The position numbers and the translations under genes are program-made. Positions 1 through 26,796 of a DNA stretch of 26,796 bases are shown piece by piece. The notes beneath the pieces are model-generated. The model was not told where the DNA came from. It worked only from the letters and a program-made list of their open reading frames with translations, and did not search any database. This stretch comes from a virus (Duplodnaviria; Heunggongvirae; Uroviricota; Caudoviricetes), in IMG/VR virus record IMGVR_UViG_3300045988_147492. One strand, 5' to 3'. Positions within the stretch are counted from its first letter, which is position 1. Each line of letters opens with the position of its first letter.

Positions 1-1
1 A

Positions 2-430
2 AAAAGCGGCATCGCCGCGCCTCGGAGTCCTGTCAATAACTGTGGAAAGCTCACCGGTGGTGATACTTCGTTACCGGCTCCCACACCTTCTGAGCACGCC
101 GCCGCAGTGCTTAATCTGGTTGATGACGGTGTTATTGAATGGAATGAACCGGAGGTCGTGAGGGCGCTCAGGGGCGCATTAAAACACGGACTGAGAACAC
201 CACATTGTCAGCCAAGAAACGGAAGCCCGTTAAAACCGCATGAAATAGCGCCATCAGCTAGACTGACCAGGTCGGAACGAATGCAAATCACCCGTATCCG
301 CGTTGACCTTGCTCAGAACGGTATCAGGCCGCAGCGATGGGAACTTGAGGCGCTGGCGCGTGGAGCGACATTGGTATATGGCGAAAAAAAATTCACATAT
401 CAGCTTGTTGATAAGCAGTTTTGTTTTTAA
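2..430 (+). CDS. 3' portion of an upstream early-region phage gene whose 5' end lies outside the window; possibly the C-terminus of replication protein gpA or an adjacent early ORF
   Basis: The frame is open from window position 2 to the stop at 428-430; the ORF track lists it only from a GTG at 107. Its GC content is like the phage backbone, not the AT-rich cassette downstream. Its position left of the cargo locus fits the P2 prophage order int-C-cox-B-A-hotspot-cos. Confidence 0.45.
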   Translation, partial: KSGIAAPRSPVNNCGKLTGGDTSLPAPTPSEHAAAVLNLVDDGVIEWNEPEVVRALRGALKHGLRTPHCQPRNGSPLKPHEIAPSARLTRSERMQITRIRVDLAQNGIRPQRWELEALARGATLVYGEKKFTYQLVDKQFCF

Positions 431-869
431 TCAAATAGTGTATTAAATGTACTAAAATGTATCTTTTTATATAAAAAACAAAGTGTTGAATCAATTCTCG
501 GCTTTTGTATTTTTTAGATCGTAAACCGATTAGTGTTACCAAGAGTATTCAGTTAATAGGGCTTTAATTTTTTGCTTCCCTGTTTTGGTGGTTATGTGGT
601 ACTGTGTTTTTATACAGTTTTTGAGGTTGCTGAGAAATAGAGAATGATAGAGTTATATGCGAGCCTTAGTTTAATTCGTTGTAATTAGGATCGGGTATAT
701 CATTCGTGCTGTCAGTGGTCCTATACCACTAAGCAAAGCAATAGAATCCTACGAATTATTGTTTAAATAGTAACATTGGCAATTATAACGGCAGTATCTG
801 TGTTTTGTCTGTCAGTGGTTACATCGAGAGTATGTGATTTGCATTACATAACTAGTTGATGTTCCTTAG

Positions 870-898
870 TTGTAGATAGAAAGTATTCGATTTATTAT
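870..898 (+). promoter_or_regulatory. Candidate sigma70 promoter for the four-gene cassette (TTGTAG, 17-bp spacer, TATTAT)
   Basis: -35-like TTGTAG at 870-875 and -10-like TATTAT at 893-898 with a 17-bp spacer, about 35 bp upstream of the ORF at 932. An AAGGA Shine-Dalgarno-like motif at 920-924 lies 7 nt before the ATG. Confidence 0.3.
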
Positions 899-931
899 AA
901 GAGTACAAAAATTTATGCTAAGGATACTAGA

Positions 932-1123
932 ATGGAGTGGATTACACATATCATCACTTTCTTTGTCGGACTGGGAGCGGGTTGGTCGATTCGTGTCGTG
1001 TTTTCATCTAGAAAGCAAATTGGTAATTCCAGCGTGAACTCAAACAATCATACAGTTACTCAAACTGGTAACAGTGTTACAAATGGAAGTATTGTTGGCG
1101 GTAATCAGGATAGGTCACATTAA
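932..1123 (+). CDS. Small membrane-anchored protein (63 aa): one N-terminal hydrophobic helix followed by a Gly/Asn/Thr-rich repeat tail
   Basis: ATG start with an upstream AAGGA. Residues about 4-24 (ITHIITFFVGLGAGWSIRVVF) are hydrophobic. The C-terminal 20 aa (TVTQTGNSVTNGSIVGGNQD) recur at the N-terminus of the next ORF. AT-rich codon usage differs from the phage backbone. Confidence 0.5.
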   Translation: MEWITHIITFFVGLGAGWSIRVVFSSRKQIGNSSVNSNNHTVTQTGNSVTNGSIVGGNQDRSH

Positions 1124-1134
1124 GAGGTGTTGGT

Positions 1135-1698
1135 GTGTCTATCGAACAGTCAGGAAATACCGTAACAAATGGCAACATAATTTCTGGTGATCAGACTAAT
1201 CATATATTCAATTATCCTGTTAAAGGAACTAACCGGGAGATACAGAAACTTTATGAGTGTTTGAAGAGAGGTGATATAGGGGAAGCGGTTCCGGGGTTTT
1301 GTGCTGAACTAGAGCATTATATGTCCCTTCAGCCTGATATTGATGTTCGGGGGTTAGACGCTAAATTACTCGAGAGTAATAGAAAAGATTTGTTGTTTTT
1401 AGCTAAGCAGATGAAGGAAAAAGCGACAAAAGCCATAATGCGTCGCCAGACGTCAAAAACTGCACAAAGAATATTTGTAATAATTTTAGATCAAATTCAT
1501 TTTGATTTTATAACGAAAGTAACACCACTTATAGAAGCGGATAGCTCCAGAGTGATTGTTGATGAGAAAATCGCTTCAATAATTGATGAATTATATTCGT
1601 CTTTGGGAGAGAACTTGCTAGAGCTAACAGCAAAAGATCTCTTGGGATTACTATTTTTTCTGGGTGGCAATTGCCATATAAGGTGGGATAAATGCTAA
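1135..1698 (+). CDS. Predicted alpha-helical protein (187 aa, GTG start) beginning with the same 20-aa repeat motif as the preceding ORF; candidate effector or adaptor component
   Basis: GTG start at 1135 preceded by GAGG at 1124-1127. The N-terminus SIEQSGNTVTNGNIISGDQT matches the tail of the upstream ORF. The 3' end overlaps the next ORF by 7 nt, consistent with an operon. Confidence 0.55.
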   Translation: MSIEQSGNTVTNGNIISGDQTNHIFNYPVKGTNREIQKLYECLKRGDIGEAVPGFCAELEHYMSLQPDIDVRGLDAKLLESNRKDLLFLAKQMKEKATKAIMRRQTSKTAQRIFVIILDQIHFDFITKVTPLIEADSSRVIVDEKIASIIDELYSSLGENLLELTAKDLLGLLFFLGGNCHIRWDKC

Positions 1699-2192
1699 TT
1701 TACCATCCAGCATATGATGCATATCATTGTTTATTCAGAATGATTGCTCTTATAGACCATGTAAATGAAATTGAGGTAGATAAGGCCAGAATTTTGGACT
1801 TCTATCTGCTATTTCCTGCTTTGGTATCTGAAATTAGAATGCCTCATAATTATTCTTCAATGAAGAAAGAAGCGAAGAAGTATTCTAATATATATCGGGA
1901 TCCTATTAATGTTAGATCTACATTCAGAGATATGTATGAAATTCAAATGGCAGCAATAAGATGTCTTGCAGCTACTGGGTTGGTTGAGATGGATTGTCTT
2001 GAGAAAAACATTATAAAGAGAACAGATAAGTCTGTTCCAGATGGCTTATTACTTTCTATTAATAATTTTATTAATACGAATAAAACTATTAATACATTTA
2101 TCATAGATACACTATCTAAATTCCATTTGGTTGGAAAAGATGGTTTAAAAGATAGAACGAAGTTAATGGAGTTTAGATATGACTATTCTTAA
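1692..2192 (+). CDS. Small helical protein (166 aa), translationally coupled between the upstream ORF and the ATPase; candidate middle or accessory component
   Basis: ATG at 1692 with AGGTGGG at about 1679-1685. It overlaps the upstream ORF by 7 nt and the downstream ATPase by 14 nt. Composition is AT-rich like the rest of the cassette. Confidence 0.6.
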   Translation: MLIYHPAYDAYHCLFRMIALIDHVNEIEVDKARILDFYLLFPALVSEIRMPHNYSSMKKEAKKYSNIYRDPINVRSTFRDMYEIQMAAIRCLAATGLVEMDCLEKNIIKRTDKSVPDGLLLSINNFINTNKTINTFIIDTLSKFHLVGKDGLKDRTKLMEFRYDYS

Positions 2193-4116
2193 TCCATCTT
2201 TTTTTGTTAGTAAATTAAAAGTTTTCCAAGCTGGGCATGAAGCATTTAGCTGTGTTTTCCATAAAGGGGTAAATGTAATAAGGGGGCGAAATAGCTCTGG
2301 CAAAACTACTGTTATGGATCTTTTAGCATTTTCACTTGGTGCTGAAAATATTAGCTTGAAACCAACAGCTCTTTTATGTTCATTTACCATGGTTGAAGTG
2401 CTTTTGAATAATAATCTTGCCTGTTTTAAGCGGGAGATAAGTTCAGAATCCATGCGGCCGTTGAGTATTTTTTGGGGCTCGATGGATAAAGCTCTTAACT
2501 CATCACCGAGTCAGTGGCAAACTTATCCTTTTAAGCGTTCAGAAAAATCACTGAGTTTTTCTCAGGTAATTCTAAATGCTTTGGATATGCCTCTAGCTCA
2601 AGGAGAGGGTGCTTCAATTTTAACAATGCATCAAATCCTACGTGTATTATATGCAGATCAGCCATCTCTTCATAGTCCTATATTTAGGAACGATAATTTT
2701 GATAGAGCTCTAACACGAGAGACTATTGGTGATTATTTATGTGGTATATTTGATGACAAACTTTATAGCTCTTTGATTAGGCTTAAACAGGTTGATGCTG
2801 AACTTTCGACAAAAATTGTTGAGCTGAAAAGCATATTTAAAGTTCTTGGACGCTCTGGGCAATCGCAGCATGTAAGTTTTATTGACGATAAAATAAAAGA
2901 GCTAAGAGAGAAGAAAGAAAAGATCAATGGAGAGCTTATCTCTCTCAAAGAGAGTAATAACTCTTCTGTTAATGATAAAAATGCTGATAAAACTAAAACT
3001 AACAACCTTCGAAAAAATTTAAATAAAGCGAAGGAAGAAGAAGTAAAAAATATTGACAGTATCCATATGTTAGAAATGGAGATAGCTGACTCTGAAATGT
3101 TCATTAATGAGTTAGAATCCAGATTGCGCTCTCTTAATGAATCAAGTATTGCCAGAGACTATTTTAGCAACGTTAAATTTCAATTTTGTCCCAGTTGTTT
3201 AAGTGAGTTGAATATTTCCTCTGAAAATGAGTGCTCATTATGTAAAAATCACGCGCCAGAGGGTAGTGATGCTCCTCAATTATTAAGGATGAAAAATGAG
3301 ATTTCTATCCAATTAAAAGAATCCAGAGATCTTCTTGAGCATAATTATGTAAAACTGAGAGAGCTTAAGAGCCAATCTCCTGCTTTAAAGCAAAAAGTGC
3401 GAGATTTAATTCGTGAATATGAAGAAGTCTCTAAGGTTTGGGAAAATGCCTATGAAATAGAGTTTGAAACTCTTACTAAGGCTCTGGGACGTGTTGAAGA
3501 AGAAATTAAACAGGCTTGTGAATTACAAAAACTTAGTGATGTAATATCTGATTTGCAAAAAGATCGTGATAGTCTGCAGTCAGAGAAGGAGAGATTGTCC
3601 TCTTTAATTGAATCTTTGGAGAGTAAAGAGGAATATAGGAAGAAGGATATTTCTAAAACTATAGAAAACATTATGAAAAGACTTCTTAAAAAAGATCTTC
3701 CATTGCAGACTGAATTTATTGATCCTAGAAAAGTTAATTTTAGCTTTGCCGATAATACTGTTTATGTAAATGGGTCTAAGTATTTTTCAGAAAGTTCAGC
3801 AGTTGTATTAAGACATCTCTTTCATTTAGCATTGTTAACTGCAAGTATTGAAAAAAAATACATGAGATTACCTCGTTTCCTAATGCTTGATGGAATTGAC
3901 GATGGTGGAATGGAGAAAGAGCGCAGTCACAATCTGCAGAAAATAATAGTACAAGAAACTCAATCGTATCAATATGATTTTCAAATAATTTATGCTACAT
4001 CGGAGATTAATCCAGAATATGAAAATACCGATTTGATTGTTGGTCGATATTTTAATCCAGATGATAAATCATTAAAGATAAATTATACCGCTCTTGATAA
4101 AGATTTATTGAACTAA
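2179..4116 (+). CDS. SMC/Rad50-like ABC ATPase (645 aa): N-terminal Walker A, long central coiled coil with a CxxC-x11-CxxC zinc-hook-like motif, C-terminal signature-like and Walker B/D-loop/H-loop region; no nuclease domain
   Basis: Walker A GRNSSGKT at residues 36-43 (nt 2284-2307). A Lys/Glu/Leu-rich heptad-like region spans roughly residues 190-520 and produces the antisense low-complexity ORFs at 2763-3104 and 3450-3671. Cysteines C337, C340, C352 and C355 lie at nt 3187-3243. Walker-B-like FLMLDGIDDGG sits near residue 567, followed by ERSHNL. ATG at 2179 with GGAG 8 nt upstream. Confidence 0.8.
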   Translation: MTILNPSFFVSKLKVFQAGHEAFSCVFHKGVNVIRGRNSSGKTTVMDLLAFSLGAENISLKPTALLCSFTMVEVLLNNNLACFKREISSESMRPLSIFWGSMDKALNSSPSQWQTYPFKRSEKSLSFSQVILNALDMPLAQGEGASILTMHQILRVLYADQPSLHSPIFRNDNFDRALTRETIGDYLCGIFDDKLYSSLIRLKQVDAELSTKIVELKSIFKVLGRSGQSQHVSFIDDKIKELREKKEKINGELISLKESNNSSVNDKNADKTKTNNLRKNLNKAKEEEVKNIDSIHMLEMEIADSEMFINELESRLRSLNESSIARDYFSNVKFQFCPSCLSELNISSENECSLCKNHAPEGSDAPQLLRMKNEISIQLKESRDLLEHNYVKLRELKSQSPALKQKVRDLIREYEEVSKVWENAYEIEFETLTKALGRVEEEIKQACELQKLSDVISDLQKDRDSLQSEKERLSSLIESLESKEEYRKKDISKTIENIMKRLLKKDLPLQTEFIDPRKVNFSFADNTVYVNGSKYFSESSAVVLRHLFHLALLTASIEKKYMRLPRFLMLDGIDDGGMEKERSHNLQKIIVQETQSYQYDFQIIYATSEINPEYENTDLIVGRYFNPDDKSLKINYTALDKDLLN

Positions 4117-4120
4117 CAAC

Positions 4121-4150
4121 CAAAACCATGCATAACCATGCATGGTTTTG
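4121..4150. terminator. Perfect 12-bp inverted repeat (caaaaccatgca / tgcatggttttg) with a 6-nt loop, containing a 10-bp direct repeat aaccatgcat x2; putative terminator and cargo boundary
   Basis: Arms at 4121-4132 and 4139-4150 are exact reverse complements. It lies 5 nt after the ATPase stop and about 100 bp before cos. The T-run is partly inside the stem, so terminator function is uncertain. Confidence 0.4.
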
Positions 4151-4249
4151 CATTTATATCAGCTTGTTTTTGAATCGGGGCAAGTCCAGGGGTGGTAAGC
4201 TGTTTGGAGAAAACTGCAACTGCATTAAAACCGCCCCGTGAAGCGGGCG

Positions 4250-4268
4250 GGCGAGGCGGGGAAAGCAC
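4250..4268. other. cos: cos site: 19-nt cohesive-end sequence of P2-type phages (GGCGAGGCGGGGAAAGCAC)
   Basis: The sequence ggcgaggcggggaaagcac is present at 4250-4268, in the expected place between the cargo locus and portal gene Q. The match to the P2 cohesive end is from memory, not from a search. Confidence 0.6.
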
Positions 4269-4410
4269 TGCGCGCTGGCGGTGGTGCTGATTTTATTTTT
4301 TCAGCGTCTCAGCGCGTCGTGACGGCGCTTAGTCTGCCCGTTGAGGCGTTGGTGTGTCTGCGGGGTGTTTTGTGCGGTGGTGAGCGTGTGAGGGCGTGAT
4401 GACGGGGTGT

Positions 4411-4432
4411 AAAAAAGCCGCCCGCAGGCGGC
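4411..4432 (-). terminator. Rho-independent terminator immediately after Q on the minus strand
   Basis: On the minus strand the Q stop at 4440-4438 is followed by GCCGCC-UGCG-GGCGGC (6-bp GC stem, 4-nt loop; plus-strand coordinates 4417-4432) and then six U residues (plus-strand aaaaaa at 4411-4416). Confidence 0.6.
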
Positions 4433-4437
4433 GATGT

Positions 4438-5472
4438 TCAGCCGTTGTCAGTGTCCAGTGAGTAGTTTTTAAATCGGATGACCTCCTGACCGAGCCAGCC
4501 GTTTATCTCGCGGATCCTGTCCTGTAACGGGATAAGCTCATTGCGGACAAAGACCTTTGCCACTTTCTCAATATCACCCAGCGACCCGACGTTTTCCGGC
4601 TTGCCACCCATCAACTGAAAGGGGATGCGGTGCGCGTCAAGCAGGTCAGCGGCGCTGGCTTTTTTGATATTAAAAAAATCGTCCTTCGTTGCCACTTCAC
4701 TGAGCGGGATAATTTTAATGCCGTCGGCTTTCCCCTGAGGGGCATAGAGAAACAGATTTTTAAAGTTATTGCGGCCTTTCGACTTAACCATGTTTTCGCG
4801 AAGCATTTCGATATCGTTGCGATCCTGCACGGCATCGGTGACGTACATGATGTATCCGGCATGTGCGCCGTTTTCGTAATACTTGCGGCGGAACAGCGTG
4901 GCCGACTCATTCAGCCAGGCAGAGTTAAGGGCGCTGAGATATTCCGGCAGGCCGTACAGCTCCTGATTAATATCGGGCTCCAGCAGGTGAAACACGGAGC
5001 CGGGCGCGAAGGCTGTCGGCTCGTTGAAGGACGGCACCCACCAGTAAACATCCTCTTCCACGCCACGACGGGTATATTTCGCCGGTGAGGTTTCCAGTCT
5101 GATGACCTTACTGGTGGTGCTGTAGCGCTTTTCCAGAAACGCATTACCGAACACCAGAAAATCCAGCACAAAGCGGCTGAAATCCTGCTGAGAAAGCCAC
5201 GGATGCGGGATAAATGTCGAGGCCAGAATATTACGTTTGACGTAAATCGGTGAGCTGTGATGCACGGCAGCACGCAGGCTTTTTGCCAGACCGGTAAAGC
5301 TGACCGGTGGCTCATACCATCTGCCGTTACTGATGCACTCGACGTAATCCAGAATGTCACGGCGGTCGAGTACCGGCACCGGCTCACCAAAGGTGAATGC
5401 CTCCATTTTCGGGGCGCTGGCGGTGATTGTTTTTGCCGCAGGTTGCGGTGTTTTCCCTTTTTTCTTGCTCAT
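4438..5472 (-). CDS. Q: Portal protein (344 aa)
   Basis: The length equals P2 gpQ. It lies next to cos and is transcribed towards it. Its start overlaps the stop of P (TGATG on the minus strand), as in the P2 P-Q operon. Confidence 0.93.
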   Translation of the reverse strand: MSKKKGKTPQPAAKTITASAPKMEAFTFGEPVPVLDRRDILDYVECISNGRWYEPPVSFTGLAKSLRAAVHHSSPIYVKRNILASTFIPHPWLSQQDFSRFVLDFLVFGNAFLEKRYSTTSKVIRLETSPAKYTRRGVEEDVYWWVPSFNEPTAFAPGSVFHLLEPDINQELYGLPEYLSALNSAWLNESATLFRRKYYENGAHAGYIMYVTDAVQDRNDIEMLRENMVKSKGRNNFKNLFLYAPQGKADGIKIIPLSEVATKDDFFNIKKASAADLLDAHRIPFQLMGGKPENVGSLGDIEKVAKVFVRNELIPLQDRIREINGWLGQEVIRFKNYSLDTDNG

Positions 5473-7244
5473 CAGTAAAACTCCAGAATGGTGGATGTCA
5501 GCGGGGTGCTGATACCGGCGGTGAGTGGCTCATTTAACAGGGCGTGCATGGTCGCCCAGGCGATGTCGGCGTGGCTGGCTTCCTCGCTGCGGCTGGCCTC
5601 ATAGGTGGCGCTGCGTCCGCTGCTGGTCATGGTCTTGCGGATAGCCATAAACGAGCTGGTGATGTCGGTGGCGCTGACGTCATATTCCAGACAGCCACGG
5701 CGGATGACGTCTTTTGCCTTGAGCACCATTGCGGTTTTCATTTCCGGCGTGTAGCGGATGTCGCGCGCGGCGGGATAGAACGAGCGCACGAGCTGGAACA
5801 CGCCGACACCGAGGCCGGTGGCATCAATACCGATGTATTCGACGTTGTATTTTTCGGTGAGTTTGCGGATGGATTCAGCCTGGGTGGCAAAGTCCATGCC
5901 TTTCCACTGGTGACGCTCAAGTATTCTGAATTTACCACCGGCCACCACCGGCGGTGCCAGCACCACGCATCCGGCGCTGTCGCCACGGTGTGACGGGTCG
6001 TAACCAATCCATACCGGGCGGGAGCCGAACGGATTTGCGGCAAACGGCGCATAGTCTTCCCATTCTTCCAGCGTGTCGACCATGCAGCGTTGCAGCTCCT
6101 CGAACGGGAACACCGACGCCTTGTCGTCAACAAATTCACACATGAACAGGTTTTTAAAATCGTCGGCGCTGTTTTCACGTTTGAGCTGCTCAATGTCGAA
6201 CAGCGTGCAGCCACCTTTCAGGGCGTCCTCAATGGTGACAATCTGCCGCCACTGGCCGTCCGCACAGAGAAGCCCACCGGCAAGGGCGTTATGACTGACG
6301 TCGATTTCCACGCGTTCGGCGGCGCTGGCGCGTCCCCGGTTGAACAGTTCACCTGACCAGAACGGGTAGGCGTCGTGCGCCAGCGTGGACGGGGTGGAGA
6401 AATAGGTCGAGCGCAGGTGACTCTGTGAGGCCATACCTGATGCCACCTTACGCAGTACCTGAAAATTCGGGATCCAGAAAATCTCGTCGACGTACAGGTC
6501 GCCGTTATGGCTCTGTGCGGTGTTGGAGTTGGTGCCGAGAAAAATCAGTTTTGCGCCGTTATTGCCCAGGACAATCGGGTCACCGGTCAGGTCAACGTCA
6601 ACCAGACGGGCAAAGGCGATGATGTATTCGCGGAACACATACGCCTGCGTTTTACTGGCCGACAGAAAAATCTGGTTATGGCCGGTTTTCAGGGCGCGCA
6701 GCAGCGCCTCGCGGGAAAAATAAAACGTCGCGCCAATCTGGCGGGATTTCAGGATATCGCGGATGCGGTGCTCAAGCCCGGCGCGATACCAGTGCAACTG
6801 ATAGTCGAAAGACTGCTCAAAGAAAATCTGCTCCAGCTTTTCGATGGCCTCGTCACTGAAAAAATTCTTTTTCGGTTTGCGACGCCCGCCTTTGTTGCGG
6901 TTAGCGACGTTCGGATTAAGGTCTGCCTCGTTGCCGGTCTGACTGTAGCGGTTGACCCGTGCCAGTCGTTCAATCTGGCGTCCCAGCAGGTCAATTTCCT
7001 TGAAGTCACCGCCGGTTTTCTGCGGTTTGATGATGAGCTGGGTCAGCCGCGCTTCCAGACTCATTTCGACACGGCTGATGGGGGCAACGCTGTCCCAGCC
7101 GTCGCGCTGTTTCCAGCTCTGCACCGTCGGGCGTTTCATCTGCAACATGGCGGCAATCTGCGGCACGGAAAATCCCTGCCAGTACAGCAGCGCCGCCTGA
7201 CGACGCGGGTCGTGTAAAAGAGTGGTGTCTGTGGTGATGGTCAT
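5472..7244 (-). CDS. P: Terminase large subunit (ATPase/nuclease), 590 aa
   Basis: The ORF track gives 600 aa from 7274. The internal ATG at 7244 (MTITTDTT...) has a GAGG Shine-Dalgarno and gives 590 aa, the length of P2 gpP. It is upstream of and coupled to Q. Confidence 0.92.
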   Translation of the reverse strand: MTITTDTTLLHDPRRQAALLYWQGFSVPQIAAMLQMKRPTVQSWKQRDGWDSVAPISRVEMSLEARLTQLIIKPQKTGGDFKEIDLLGRQIERLARVNRYSQTGNEADLNPNVANRNKGGRRKPKKNFFSDEAIEKLEQIFFEQSFDYQLHWYRAGLEHRIRDILKSRQIGATFYFSREALLRALKTGHNQIFLSASKTQAYVFREYIIAFARLVDVDLTGDPIVLGNNGAKLIFLGTNSNTAQSHNGDLYVDEIFWIPNFQVLRKVASGMASQSHLRSTYFSTPSTLAHDAYPFWSGELFNRGRASAAERVEIDVSHNALAGGLLCADGQWRQIVTIEDALKGGCTLFDIEQLKRENSADDFKNLFMCEFVDDKASVFPFEELQRCMVDTLEEWEDYAPFAANPFGSRPVWIGYDPSHRGDSAGCVVLAPPVVAGGKFRILERHQWKGMDFATQAESIRKLTEKYNVEYIGIDATGLGVGVFQLVRSFYPAARDIRYTPEMKTAMVLKAKDVIRRGCLEYDVSATDITSSFMAIRKTMTSSGRSATYEASRSEEASHADIAWATMHALLNEPLTAGISTPLTSTILEFY

Positions 7245-7417
7245 GAATACCTCGCCGTGATGAATACACGGCAAGGCTACTGAGTCGCGCCCCGCGATTC
7301 GCTAAGGTGCTGTTGTATCAGTGATAAGCCATCCGGGACTGATGGCGGAGGATGCGCATCGTCGGGAAACTGATGCCGACATGTGACTCCTCTAATCACT
7401 ATTCAGGACTCCTGACA
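7245..7417. promoter_or_regulatory. Divergent late-promoter region between P (leftward) and O (rightward), containing the candidate activator element cTGTTGTaTCA...CCA at 7310-7331
   Basis: This is the intergenic gap between two divergent late operons. The 22-bp element at 7310-7331 recurs upstream of FI at 19944-19965 (CTGTTGTnTCA...CCA, TGT-N12-CCA), resembling the Ogr-dependent late-promoter dyad (TGT-N12-ACA) recalled for P2. Confidence 0.4.
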
Positions 7418-26741: not shown

Positions 26742-26768
26742 AAAAAATAAGCCCGTGTAAGGGAGATT
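26742..26768. other. att: P2-type attachment-site core (attR of a prophage, or attP): AAAAAATAAGCCCGTGTAAGGGAGATT
   Basis: The 27-bp sequence sits just after the ogr terminator, where the P2 att core lies between ogr and int. The identification of the core sequence is from memory. Confidence 0.55.
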
Positions 26769-26796
26769 ACACAGGCTAAGGAGGTGGTTCCTGGTA

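Follow-up and report, generated by a model that had tools for sequence, protein, structure and literature searches.

Is a peptide motif that occurs on both sides of a gene boundary the scar of one broken gene, or does it join two proteins that are encoded apart? The question is raised by a cargo operon in a stretch of 26,796 nucleotides of viral DNA (IMG/VR record IMGVR_UViG_3300045988_147492; in the following, the window), which is a P2-like prophage carrying this operon in its variable hotspot. An initial annotation had noticed that a 20-residue Gly/Asn/Thr-rich motif is found at the end of a 63-aa membrane protein (ORF1) and again at the beginning of the next reading frame (ORF2). It had considered a single gene split by a frameshift, be it a sequencing error, pseudogenisation or a regulated event, as well as a shared interaction module.

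The operon is flanked by the 3' end of a replication endonuclease gene (107-430, assigned from RefSeq) and by portal and terminase genes (4438-7274, minus strand, from the list of open reading frames). P2-type phages match positions 1-4437 at the flanks only, with about 93% identity, and contain other cargo between these flanks. The putatively protective operon is thus cargo in the hotspot of a P2-like prophage, with a GC content of 34% against 54% in the phage part. All four genes lie on the plus strand and are tightly packed, with an 11-nt gap between ORF1 (932-1123) and ORF2 (1135-1698), overlaps of 7 nt between ORF2 and ORF3 (1692-2192) and of 14 nt between ORF3 and ORF4 (2179-4116), and then a hairpin. 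The latter is a near-perfect 30-nt palindrome (CAAAACCATGCATAACCATGCATGGTTTTG; 4121-4150, unstranded) with a 13-bp stem, located 5 nt past the ORF4 stop, and probably is the end of the operon. The palindrome has a terminator score on both strands, and further GC-rich hairpins are found at 4231-4250 and 4417-4434, ahead of the portal gene. Between the phage replication gene and ORF1, 500 nt at 32% GC (431-931) contain no convincing ORF. This stretch presumably serves the cargo operon as promoter and leader; hits resembling promoters were no commoner in it than in shuffled sequence. At the far end of the window, the chromosomal edge of the prophage is marked by a hit in Rfam, the 3' portion of the CyaR/RyeE sRNA (26745-26796, minus strand, 67.7 bits, clipped by the window end).

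A short Lamassu operon without an enzymatic head

ORF4 is a short LmuB-type, SMC-like ABC ATPase of 645 aa that matched PADLOC LmuB over residues 6-573 (4.5e-47), with a Walker A sequence GRNSSGKT (residues 36-43) and two CxxC motifs (337 and 352). ORF3, the LmuC-type middle component, matched Pfam MC5 over its full length (1.3e-52), and ORF2 matched Pfam CTD9 of ABC-3C systems (2.4e-29), the LmuA C-terminal-domain fold being present in its helical part. With LmuB, MC5 and LmuA C-terminal domain all recognised at the sequence level, the operon is to be classed as a short Lamassu / ABC-3C system. It resembles the structurally described systems (structures 9hqx and 9nxx) in its LmuB-like ATPase with zinc-hook CxxC, its MC5 protein and its LmuA C-terminal-domain fold.

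The enzymatic effector head that LmuA carries in Lamassu is absent from ORF2. In this 187-aa protein, residues 1-30 are disordered and contain the motif, and residues 34-187 are all-helical, of which 34-72 form a helical linker. We found no effector domain in ORF2, no domain match ahead of its helical part, and no gene elsewhere in the operon that would supply an effector. Loss of the LmuA effector domain has been reported for 'clade O' of short Lamassu (Haudiquet et al., PMC12663957). The ORF2 family, an LmuA cut to about 187 aa, fits this clade by description, and only by description can the two be likened. Another report names a 'Lamassu missing a known effector' among the systems tested (PMC13586616). 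The present operon differs from described Lamassu in a fourth, upstream gene for a membrane peptide, and in a shared motif that takes the place of the fused enzymatic head.

Nearly all of the 114 ORF2 homologues (31-99% identity, from enterics to Burkholderiales and Xanthomonas) have 181-202 aa. The motif lies at or close to the N-terminus in nearly all full-length members; short N-terminal extensions occur in a few proteins, and a few others are truncated. As the homologues open with MS[IV]EQSGN, the GTG start of ORF2 is confirmed. Three longer homologues (P0236, P0286 and P0313) are apparent start-codon miscalls that reach into upstream DNA, as seen from the DNA for P0236 and from the sequence for the other two. 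A different architecture is seen in P0330 (L045, 562-1611), a CTD9 protein of 349 aa with an N-terminal domain of about 170 aa where the motif would be. This head had no Pfam or PADLOC match, and a D...E/QxK-like signature was noted by eye. P0330 hence looks like a conventional 'all-in-one' LmuA within the same CTD family, and is a distant relative.

The ORF1 membrane peptide

ORF1 is predicted from hydropathy and AF2 modelling to be a single-pass membrane peptide, and we propose it as a minimal effector. RefSeq annotates it as 'hypothetical protein', and it had no match in Pfam, NCBIfam or PADLOC; the exact protein was found on 732 contigs. Its acidic residue 2 is followed by a hydrophobic helix (about residues 4-25) and a basic stretch next to the membrane; a linker rich in Ser and Asn then leads to the motif, and a short, charged terminus closes the peptide. 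The best Kyte-Doolittle 19-residue window covers residues 7-25 with a score of 1.64, AF2 gave a helix at 2-14 and coil elsewhere, and no hydrophobic segment other than the uncleaved N-terminal TM helix is present. With a profile of these small proteins, 173 clusters were retrieved at E <= 0.01, and the 120 listed among these have 51-114 aa, mostly 56-68.

Throughout the ORF1 family the net charge is -0.9 before the TM segment and +2.8 in the 12 residues after it. According to the positive-inside rule, this pattern points to an N-out, C-in topology with the motif in the cytoplasm, and the ORF1 tail is therefore predicted to be cytoplasmic. Of 111 family members, 102 have D or E as residue 2, and the N-terminal M-[DE]-W is kept (932-940 in the window). 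Enteric ORF1 proteins have an extra stretch, QIGNSSVNSNNH, directly before the motif (ORF1 residues 29-40, window 1016-1051). Its weak likeness to the motif's first half (QTGNSVTNGSIV) may mark it as a second, degenerate repeat.

Two copies of one motif

The first motif copy comprises ORF1 residues 41-60 (TVTQTGNSVTNGSIVGGNQD; 1052-1111) on the tail that is predicted to be cytoplasmic, and the second ORF2 residues 2-21 (SIEQSGNTVTNGNIISGDQT; 1138-1197), exactly where the initial annotation had placed them. The likeness that it described was confirmed, whereas its count of about 12 shared positions in 20 was not, as we find 10 identical and 17 BLOSUM62-positive positions at a score of 62. Likewise, the copy in ORF1 lies near the end of the protein and does not form its literal last 20 residues, since three residues, RSH, follow. 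The DNA identity, put at about 60 percent, was measured as 34/60 or 57%. Matches amount to 12, 15 and 7 of 20 at codon positions 1, 2 and 3, and the third position is near random. With this distribution at 34/60 overall identity, the likeness must have been kept at the protein level. The earlier idea of peptide-level selection rather than recent duplication is supported both by the unconstrained third codon positions and by a logo common to both protein families.

Neither shuffling of the whole proteins (mean 18.6, maximum 42) nor shuffling of the two compositionally biased tails only (mean 19.9, maximum 59) reached the score of 62 in 5000 trials each. Both copies appeared as low-confidence coil in AF2 monomer models, as is expected for such motifs and without lending them positive support. 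The motif matched nothing in Pfam, NCBIfam or PADLOC. RTX-like and RHIM-like readings were discarded by eye because consensus positions misfit, and a resemblance to beta-rich repeats of surface and adhesin-like proteins, as suggested previously, is at odds with the lack of a signal peptide, the charge pattern that puts the ORF1 tail into the cytoplasm and the presence of one motif copy only.

Across homologues the same logo emerged on both sides, from 120 small proteins and from 94 CTD9 proteins: V-T-Q-x-N-N-x-A-G-[RG]-D-I-[VI]-G-G-D-[KSQ], with N-G-S-I-V-G-G-N-Q as an enteric variant. The cores favour G, N, Q, V and I and hardly contain any L, E, F or W. Composition on the TM side and the CTD9 side is nearly the same (G 18 and 18%, N 13 and 12%, V 10 and 10%, P 0 and 0.1%, L 0 and 2%). 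Proline was found in none of 2160 and in one of 1692 core positions, versus 79 of 1880 in the next 20 residues. Lysine makes up 5-6% of the cores and is not depleted, unlike in the published composition of bacterial amyloid signalling sequences (BASS). More distant CTD9 proteins (such as P0257, P0270, P0290 and P0320) carry a longer N-terminal variant, Q-x-G-N-T-V-G-G-H-Q-A-G-R-D-V-N, and the motif family is hence broader than the given logo. In locus L044, a 101-aa membrane protein (3656-3961) contains the motif twice (HENEVQGDMAGGNIVK and QSKNIVGGDMAAGNIIK), at a distance of about 20 residues, and is followed by a frameshift-broken CTD9 gene (3958-4564) with one copy (QENNVVGGDMAAGDIHK), of which P0327 is a wrong-frame call.

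Furthermore, variation in one copy follows that in the other copy of the same locus. Cognate pairs had a mean best 16-mer score of 50.1, against 35.5 for non-cognate pairs (0 of 20,000 permutations), which holds after dereplication, and in the non-enteric clade alone it was 49.5 against 39.8 (0 of 50,000 permutations). Some loci even share quirks in both copies, such as VHGDM(S/A)A in L043 and DIAGRD in L017. Comparison of cognate copies gave identities of 0.61, 0.62 and 0.36 at the three codon positions, with the same codon at only 76 of 182 identical residues; hand-set registers in L002, L004, L005 and L021 were one off, which lowers and does not raise these identities. Gene conversion as the source of the matched copies was rejected on account of this low third-position identity and rare codon sharing. 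Since co-variation is seen without gene conversion, the copies are held matched by selection, as would be expected if they bind each other. The motif is a real, conserved feature under selection. Common logo, free third codon positions and within-locus co-variation together support the shared interaction module among the possibilities raised at the outset.

A model for coupling of ORF2 to ORF1

In solved Lamassu complexes, LmuB2-LmuC keeps LmuA monomeric until DNA is sensed; LmuA is then set free and forms tetramers via its C-terminal domain. We propose that the motif is a homotypic interaction module joining two separately encoded Lamassu parts, and as a whole we find this coupling model rather likely. 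ORF2, an adaptor devoid of an enzyme, would probably be coupled by the motif to the ORF1 membrane peptide as a killing device. As part of this reading, ORF2 would represent, with reasonable likelihood, an LmuA in which a disordered motif of about 18 residues stands at the N-terminus in place of the enzymatic head.

At rest, LmuB2-LmuC (ORF4 and ORF3) would keep the ORF2 C-terminal domain monomeric. When the complex senses phage DNA, ORF2 would be freed and could oligomerise via this domain. The N-terminal motifs of ORF2, once clustered, would make a beta-sheet, amyloid-like nucleus that might recruit or template the matching ORF1 tails. In turn, clustering of ORF1 TM helices would damage the membrane and bring about abortive infection. 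Because release of LmuA and tetramerisation of its C-terminal domain gathers the N-terminal parts, an amyloid nucleus would obtain the induced proximity that it needs. From the analogies drawn below we infer binding between the copies, activation driven by oligomerisation, cross-beta or amyloid assembly and membrane killing by ORF1. The most specific form of the model, a prion-like amyloid relay in which an SMC-family sensor templates an 18-residue motif onto a separate peptide of about 60 aa and which would explain killing by 'effector-less' Lamassu, we hold to be possible and somewhat doubtful.

Relation to known systems

Amyloid signalling motifs, i.e., BASS in bacteria and HRAM, PP and sigma in fungi, have about 25 aa, with much G, N, Q, V and I and little P and L, and form the C-terminal end of an effector that targets the membrane and the N-terminal end of a sensor (Dyrka et al., 10.1101/2020.01.06.895854). 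The pairs are encoded by adjacent collinear genes mostly <=10 bp apart, and the motif is sometimes doubled on the effector, with two copies in HET-s and BASS1/6 (10.1101/2020.01.06.895854). The motif pair described here agrees with these systems in several respects. Its copies of about 20-25 aa sit at the corresponding termini of products of collinear genes, are alike within cognate pairs and show the expected composition except for K. As in BASS1-10 and fungal HET-S-NWD2, the intergenic distance is tiny, and one copy on the sensor side is occasionally met by two on the effector side (L044). In contrast to the original definition of bacterial and fungal motifs (BASS/FASS), there is neither an NLR sensor (NB-ARC/NACHT) nor a Bell- or HeLo-like effector domain, and the sensor side is an LmuA-CTD9 protein. 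Moreover, BASS pairs occur mostly in multicellular Actinobacteria and Cyanobacteria, whereas this pair is found in Proteobacteria and their prophages, with an SMC-like sensor module.

A near parallel is Bab/Agp (BASS11), an amyloid-signalling pair from a prophage hotspot that executes abortive infection in E. coli (Ibarlosa et al., 10.1101/2024.11.07.622273). Either pair is the product of neighbouring collinear genes in a defence hotspot of a prophage, with a motif of about 20 aa on the C-terminus of a small, in our case putative, membrane-targeting effector and on the N-terminus of the sensing protein. In Bab, exchange D2A abolishes killing and the N-terminal helix is a conserved pore-lining element (10.1101/2024.11.07.622273). 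An acidic residue 2 on an N-terminal hydrophobic helix may be common to Bab and the ORF1 family. Unlike Babybell, a four-helix sheath, ORF1 is a bare one-helix peptide of 63 aa. The landmark residues published for BASS11 (I87-G88-S89-V90, Q92, D99 and N100; N12 in Agp) were compared with our motif, and they fit it in no single register. In placing the same module on sensor and effector for homotypic coupling, the pair also resembles the effector-associated domains (EADs) and Death-like adaptor domains known from bacterial conflict systems. However, EADs are folded globular domains, whereas the motif is a stretch of 18-20 residues that is disordered in the monomer model.

In the Lamassu literature searched we found no mention of an upstream membrane-peptide gene with a shared motif. 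Nor did the literature searched tie amyloid signalling to Lamassu or ABC-3C; the original ABC-3C paper, which might mention a small partner, lay outside this search. Lamassu has been reported in about 10-15% of prokaryotic genomes, and its published clade without an LmuA effector domain lacks an explanation, which the coupling model, if true, would supply. If the upstream gene were the missing effector, defence-finding tools would mis-score such systems as incomplete, and cloning of lmuA, lmuC and lmuB alone would miss activity. Amyloid-type signalling would then reach past NLR and TPR-PIN sensors to SMC-like sensors, and a bare TM helix with a motif would suffice as executioner. Should the amyloid relay hold true, no smaller executioner of amyloid-controlled cell death than ORF1 would be known, as it would consist of no more than a pore-lining helix, a linker and the motif. 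The small size of the module may also make it portable as a switch.

Alternative explanations

Instead of templating each other upon activation, the two copies could form a constitutive beta-strand contact and thereby tie the LmuA-like adaptor, or else the entire complex, statically to the inner membrane. Such a tether would also fit the presence of the motif on both proteins, its co-variation and the predicted cytoplasmic tail. However, the operon would be left without any effector, and the solved Lamassu effector is inactive while held and acts only after release and oligomerisation. The composition of the cores, their exclusion of proline and the two-copy variant of L044 likewise are features of templating motifs. 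We hence regard a static tether as unlikely, and as equally unlikely that ORF1 is a localisation factor in place of an executioner, with no templating taking place.

Co-variation could also be mediated by a third surface that co-evolves with both copies. They would then bind one common site, on MC5, on LmuB or on a host or phage factor, for which the disorder of the motif when alone leaves room. The ORF1 tail might in this case act as a decoy for the ORF2 N-terminus, by competition or mimicry, and so regulate the system. In solved complexes, the N-terminal part of LmuA contacts LmuB/C minimally, and no candidate binding site was identified. The gene-pair layout, too, is that defined for direct homotypic pairs. 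Both a common partner and a decoy function of ORF1 therefore seem decidedly unlikely to us.

The coupling model presupposes two proteins. As one option, the initial annotation had put forward a single protein of TM helix, linker and helical domain that was broken by a frameshift, through error, as a pseudogene or in a regulated event. In another form of this reading, the two parts would be rejoined by programmed recoding. In the window, the two genes indeed are adjacent, lie in different frames and are 11 nt apart with an intervening stop, as it had described (ORF1 TAA at 1121-1123, ORF2 GTG at 1135). However, ORF2 has its own start and Shine-Dalgarno sequence, a GAGG at 1124-1127 in the spacer (1124-1134, plus strand), 7 nt before the GTG. 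This spacing fits translational coupling of ORF1 and ORF2 in one operon.

Two separate ORFs were present in all 45 related loci with upstream DNA, namely 22 of 23 genome loci (L022 had no upstream DNA), 20 IMG/VR loci and L044, L046 and L048. These come from Gamma- and Betaproteobacteria, from one Bacteroidota MAG and from IMG/VR prophage contigs. In every one of them both genes bear the motif, and the TM-motif gene precedes the motif-CTD9 gene. MC5 and ATPase follow in L044, L046 and L048, the loci inspected gene by gene. The spacing between the two genes ranges from a 4-nt overlap to a 68-nt gap, with most at <=13 nt, and the relative frame is variable. Uniform retention of two ORFs in homologous cassettes, which the initial annotation had named as the observation to decide against a frameshift artefact, was thus found, together with variation of spacing and frame.

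Fused homologues were also missing from the roughly 400 clusters listed, namely 114 homologues of ORF2, 120 clusters of the ORF1 family and the best 150 of 617 further clusters. The latter stem from an exhaustive HMMER search of 1.84 billion representatives that gave 617 clusters, of which the top 150 had a median length of 189 aa. One apparent TM-CTD9 fusion, P0327, was rejected, as the gene is frameshifted and its wrong-frame translation is hydrophobic by chance. Any fusion would, in addition, hold the motif twice in tandem, and nearly all full-length ORF2 homologues have an N-terminal motif of their own. A sequencing or assembly error at the junction is excluded, because the RefSeq annotation with the same two genes, the 732 contigs and 19 complete E. 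coli genomes with >=99.4% identity agree, i.e., the region is identical in many independent assemblies. ORF1 and ORF2 are two genes, not one, and we reject a split gene in any of these forms as very improbable.

A functionless chance likeness of two low-complexity Gly/Asn/Thr-rich stretches, for which the biased composition of both might speak and which absence of the motif in homologues had been expected to indicate, is practically negligible, given that no shuffle of the biased tails reached the score, that both families keep a position-specific logo across phyla, and that the copies co-vary within loci.

Individual loci show irregularities in this region. In Ottowia flava (L011, about 3800-3993), the small TM-motif gene is interrupted, so that the frame with the TM helix stops and the motif tail lies in another, which points to a decaying copy or to an error of assembly. 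Among the E. coli matches, the alignments of H7 and H17 to the 1321-nt query cover 1320 and 1322 nt, which means one single-base indel for each somewhere in the ORF1-ORF3 region.
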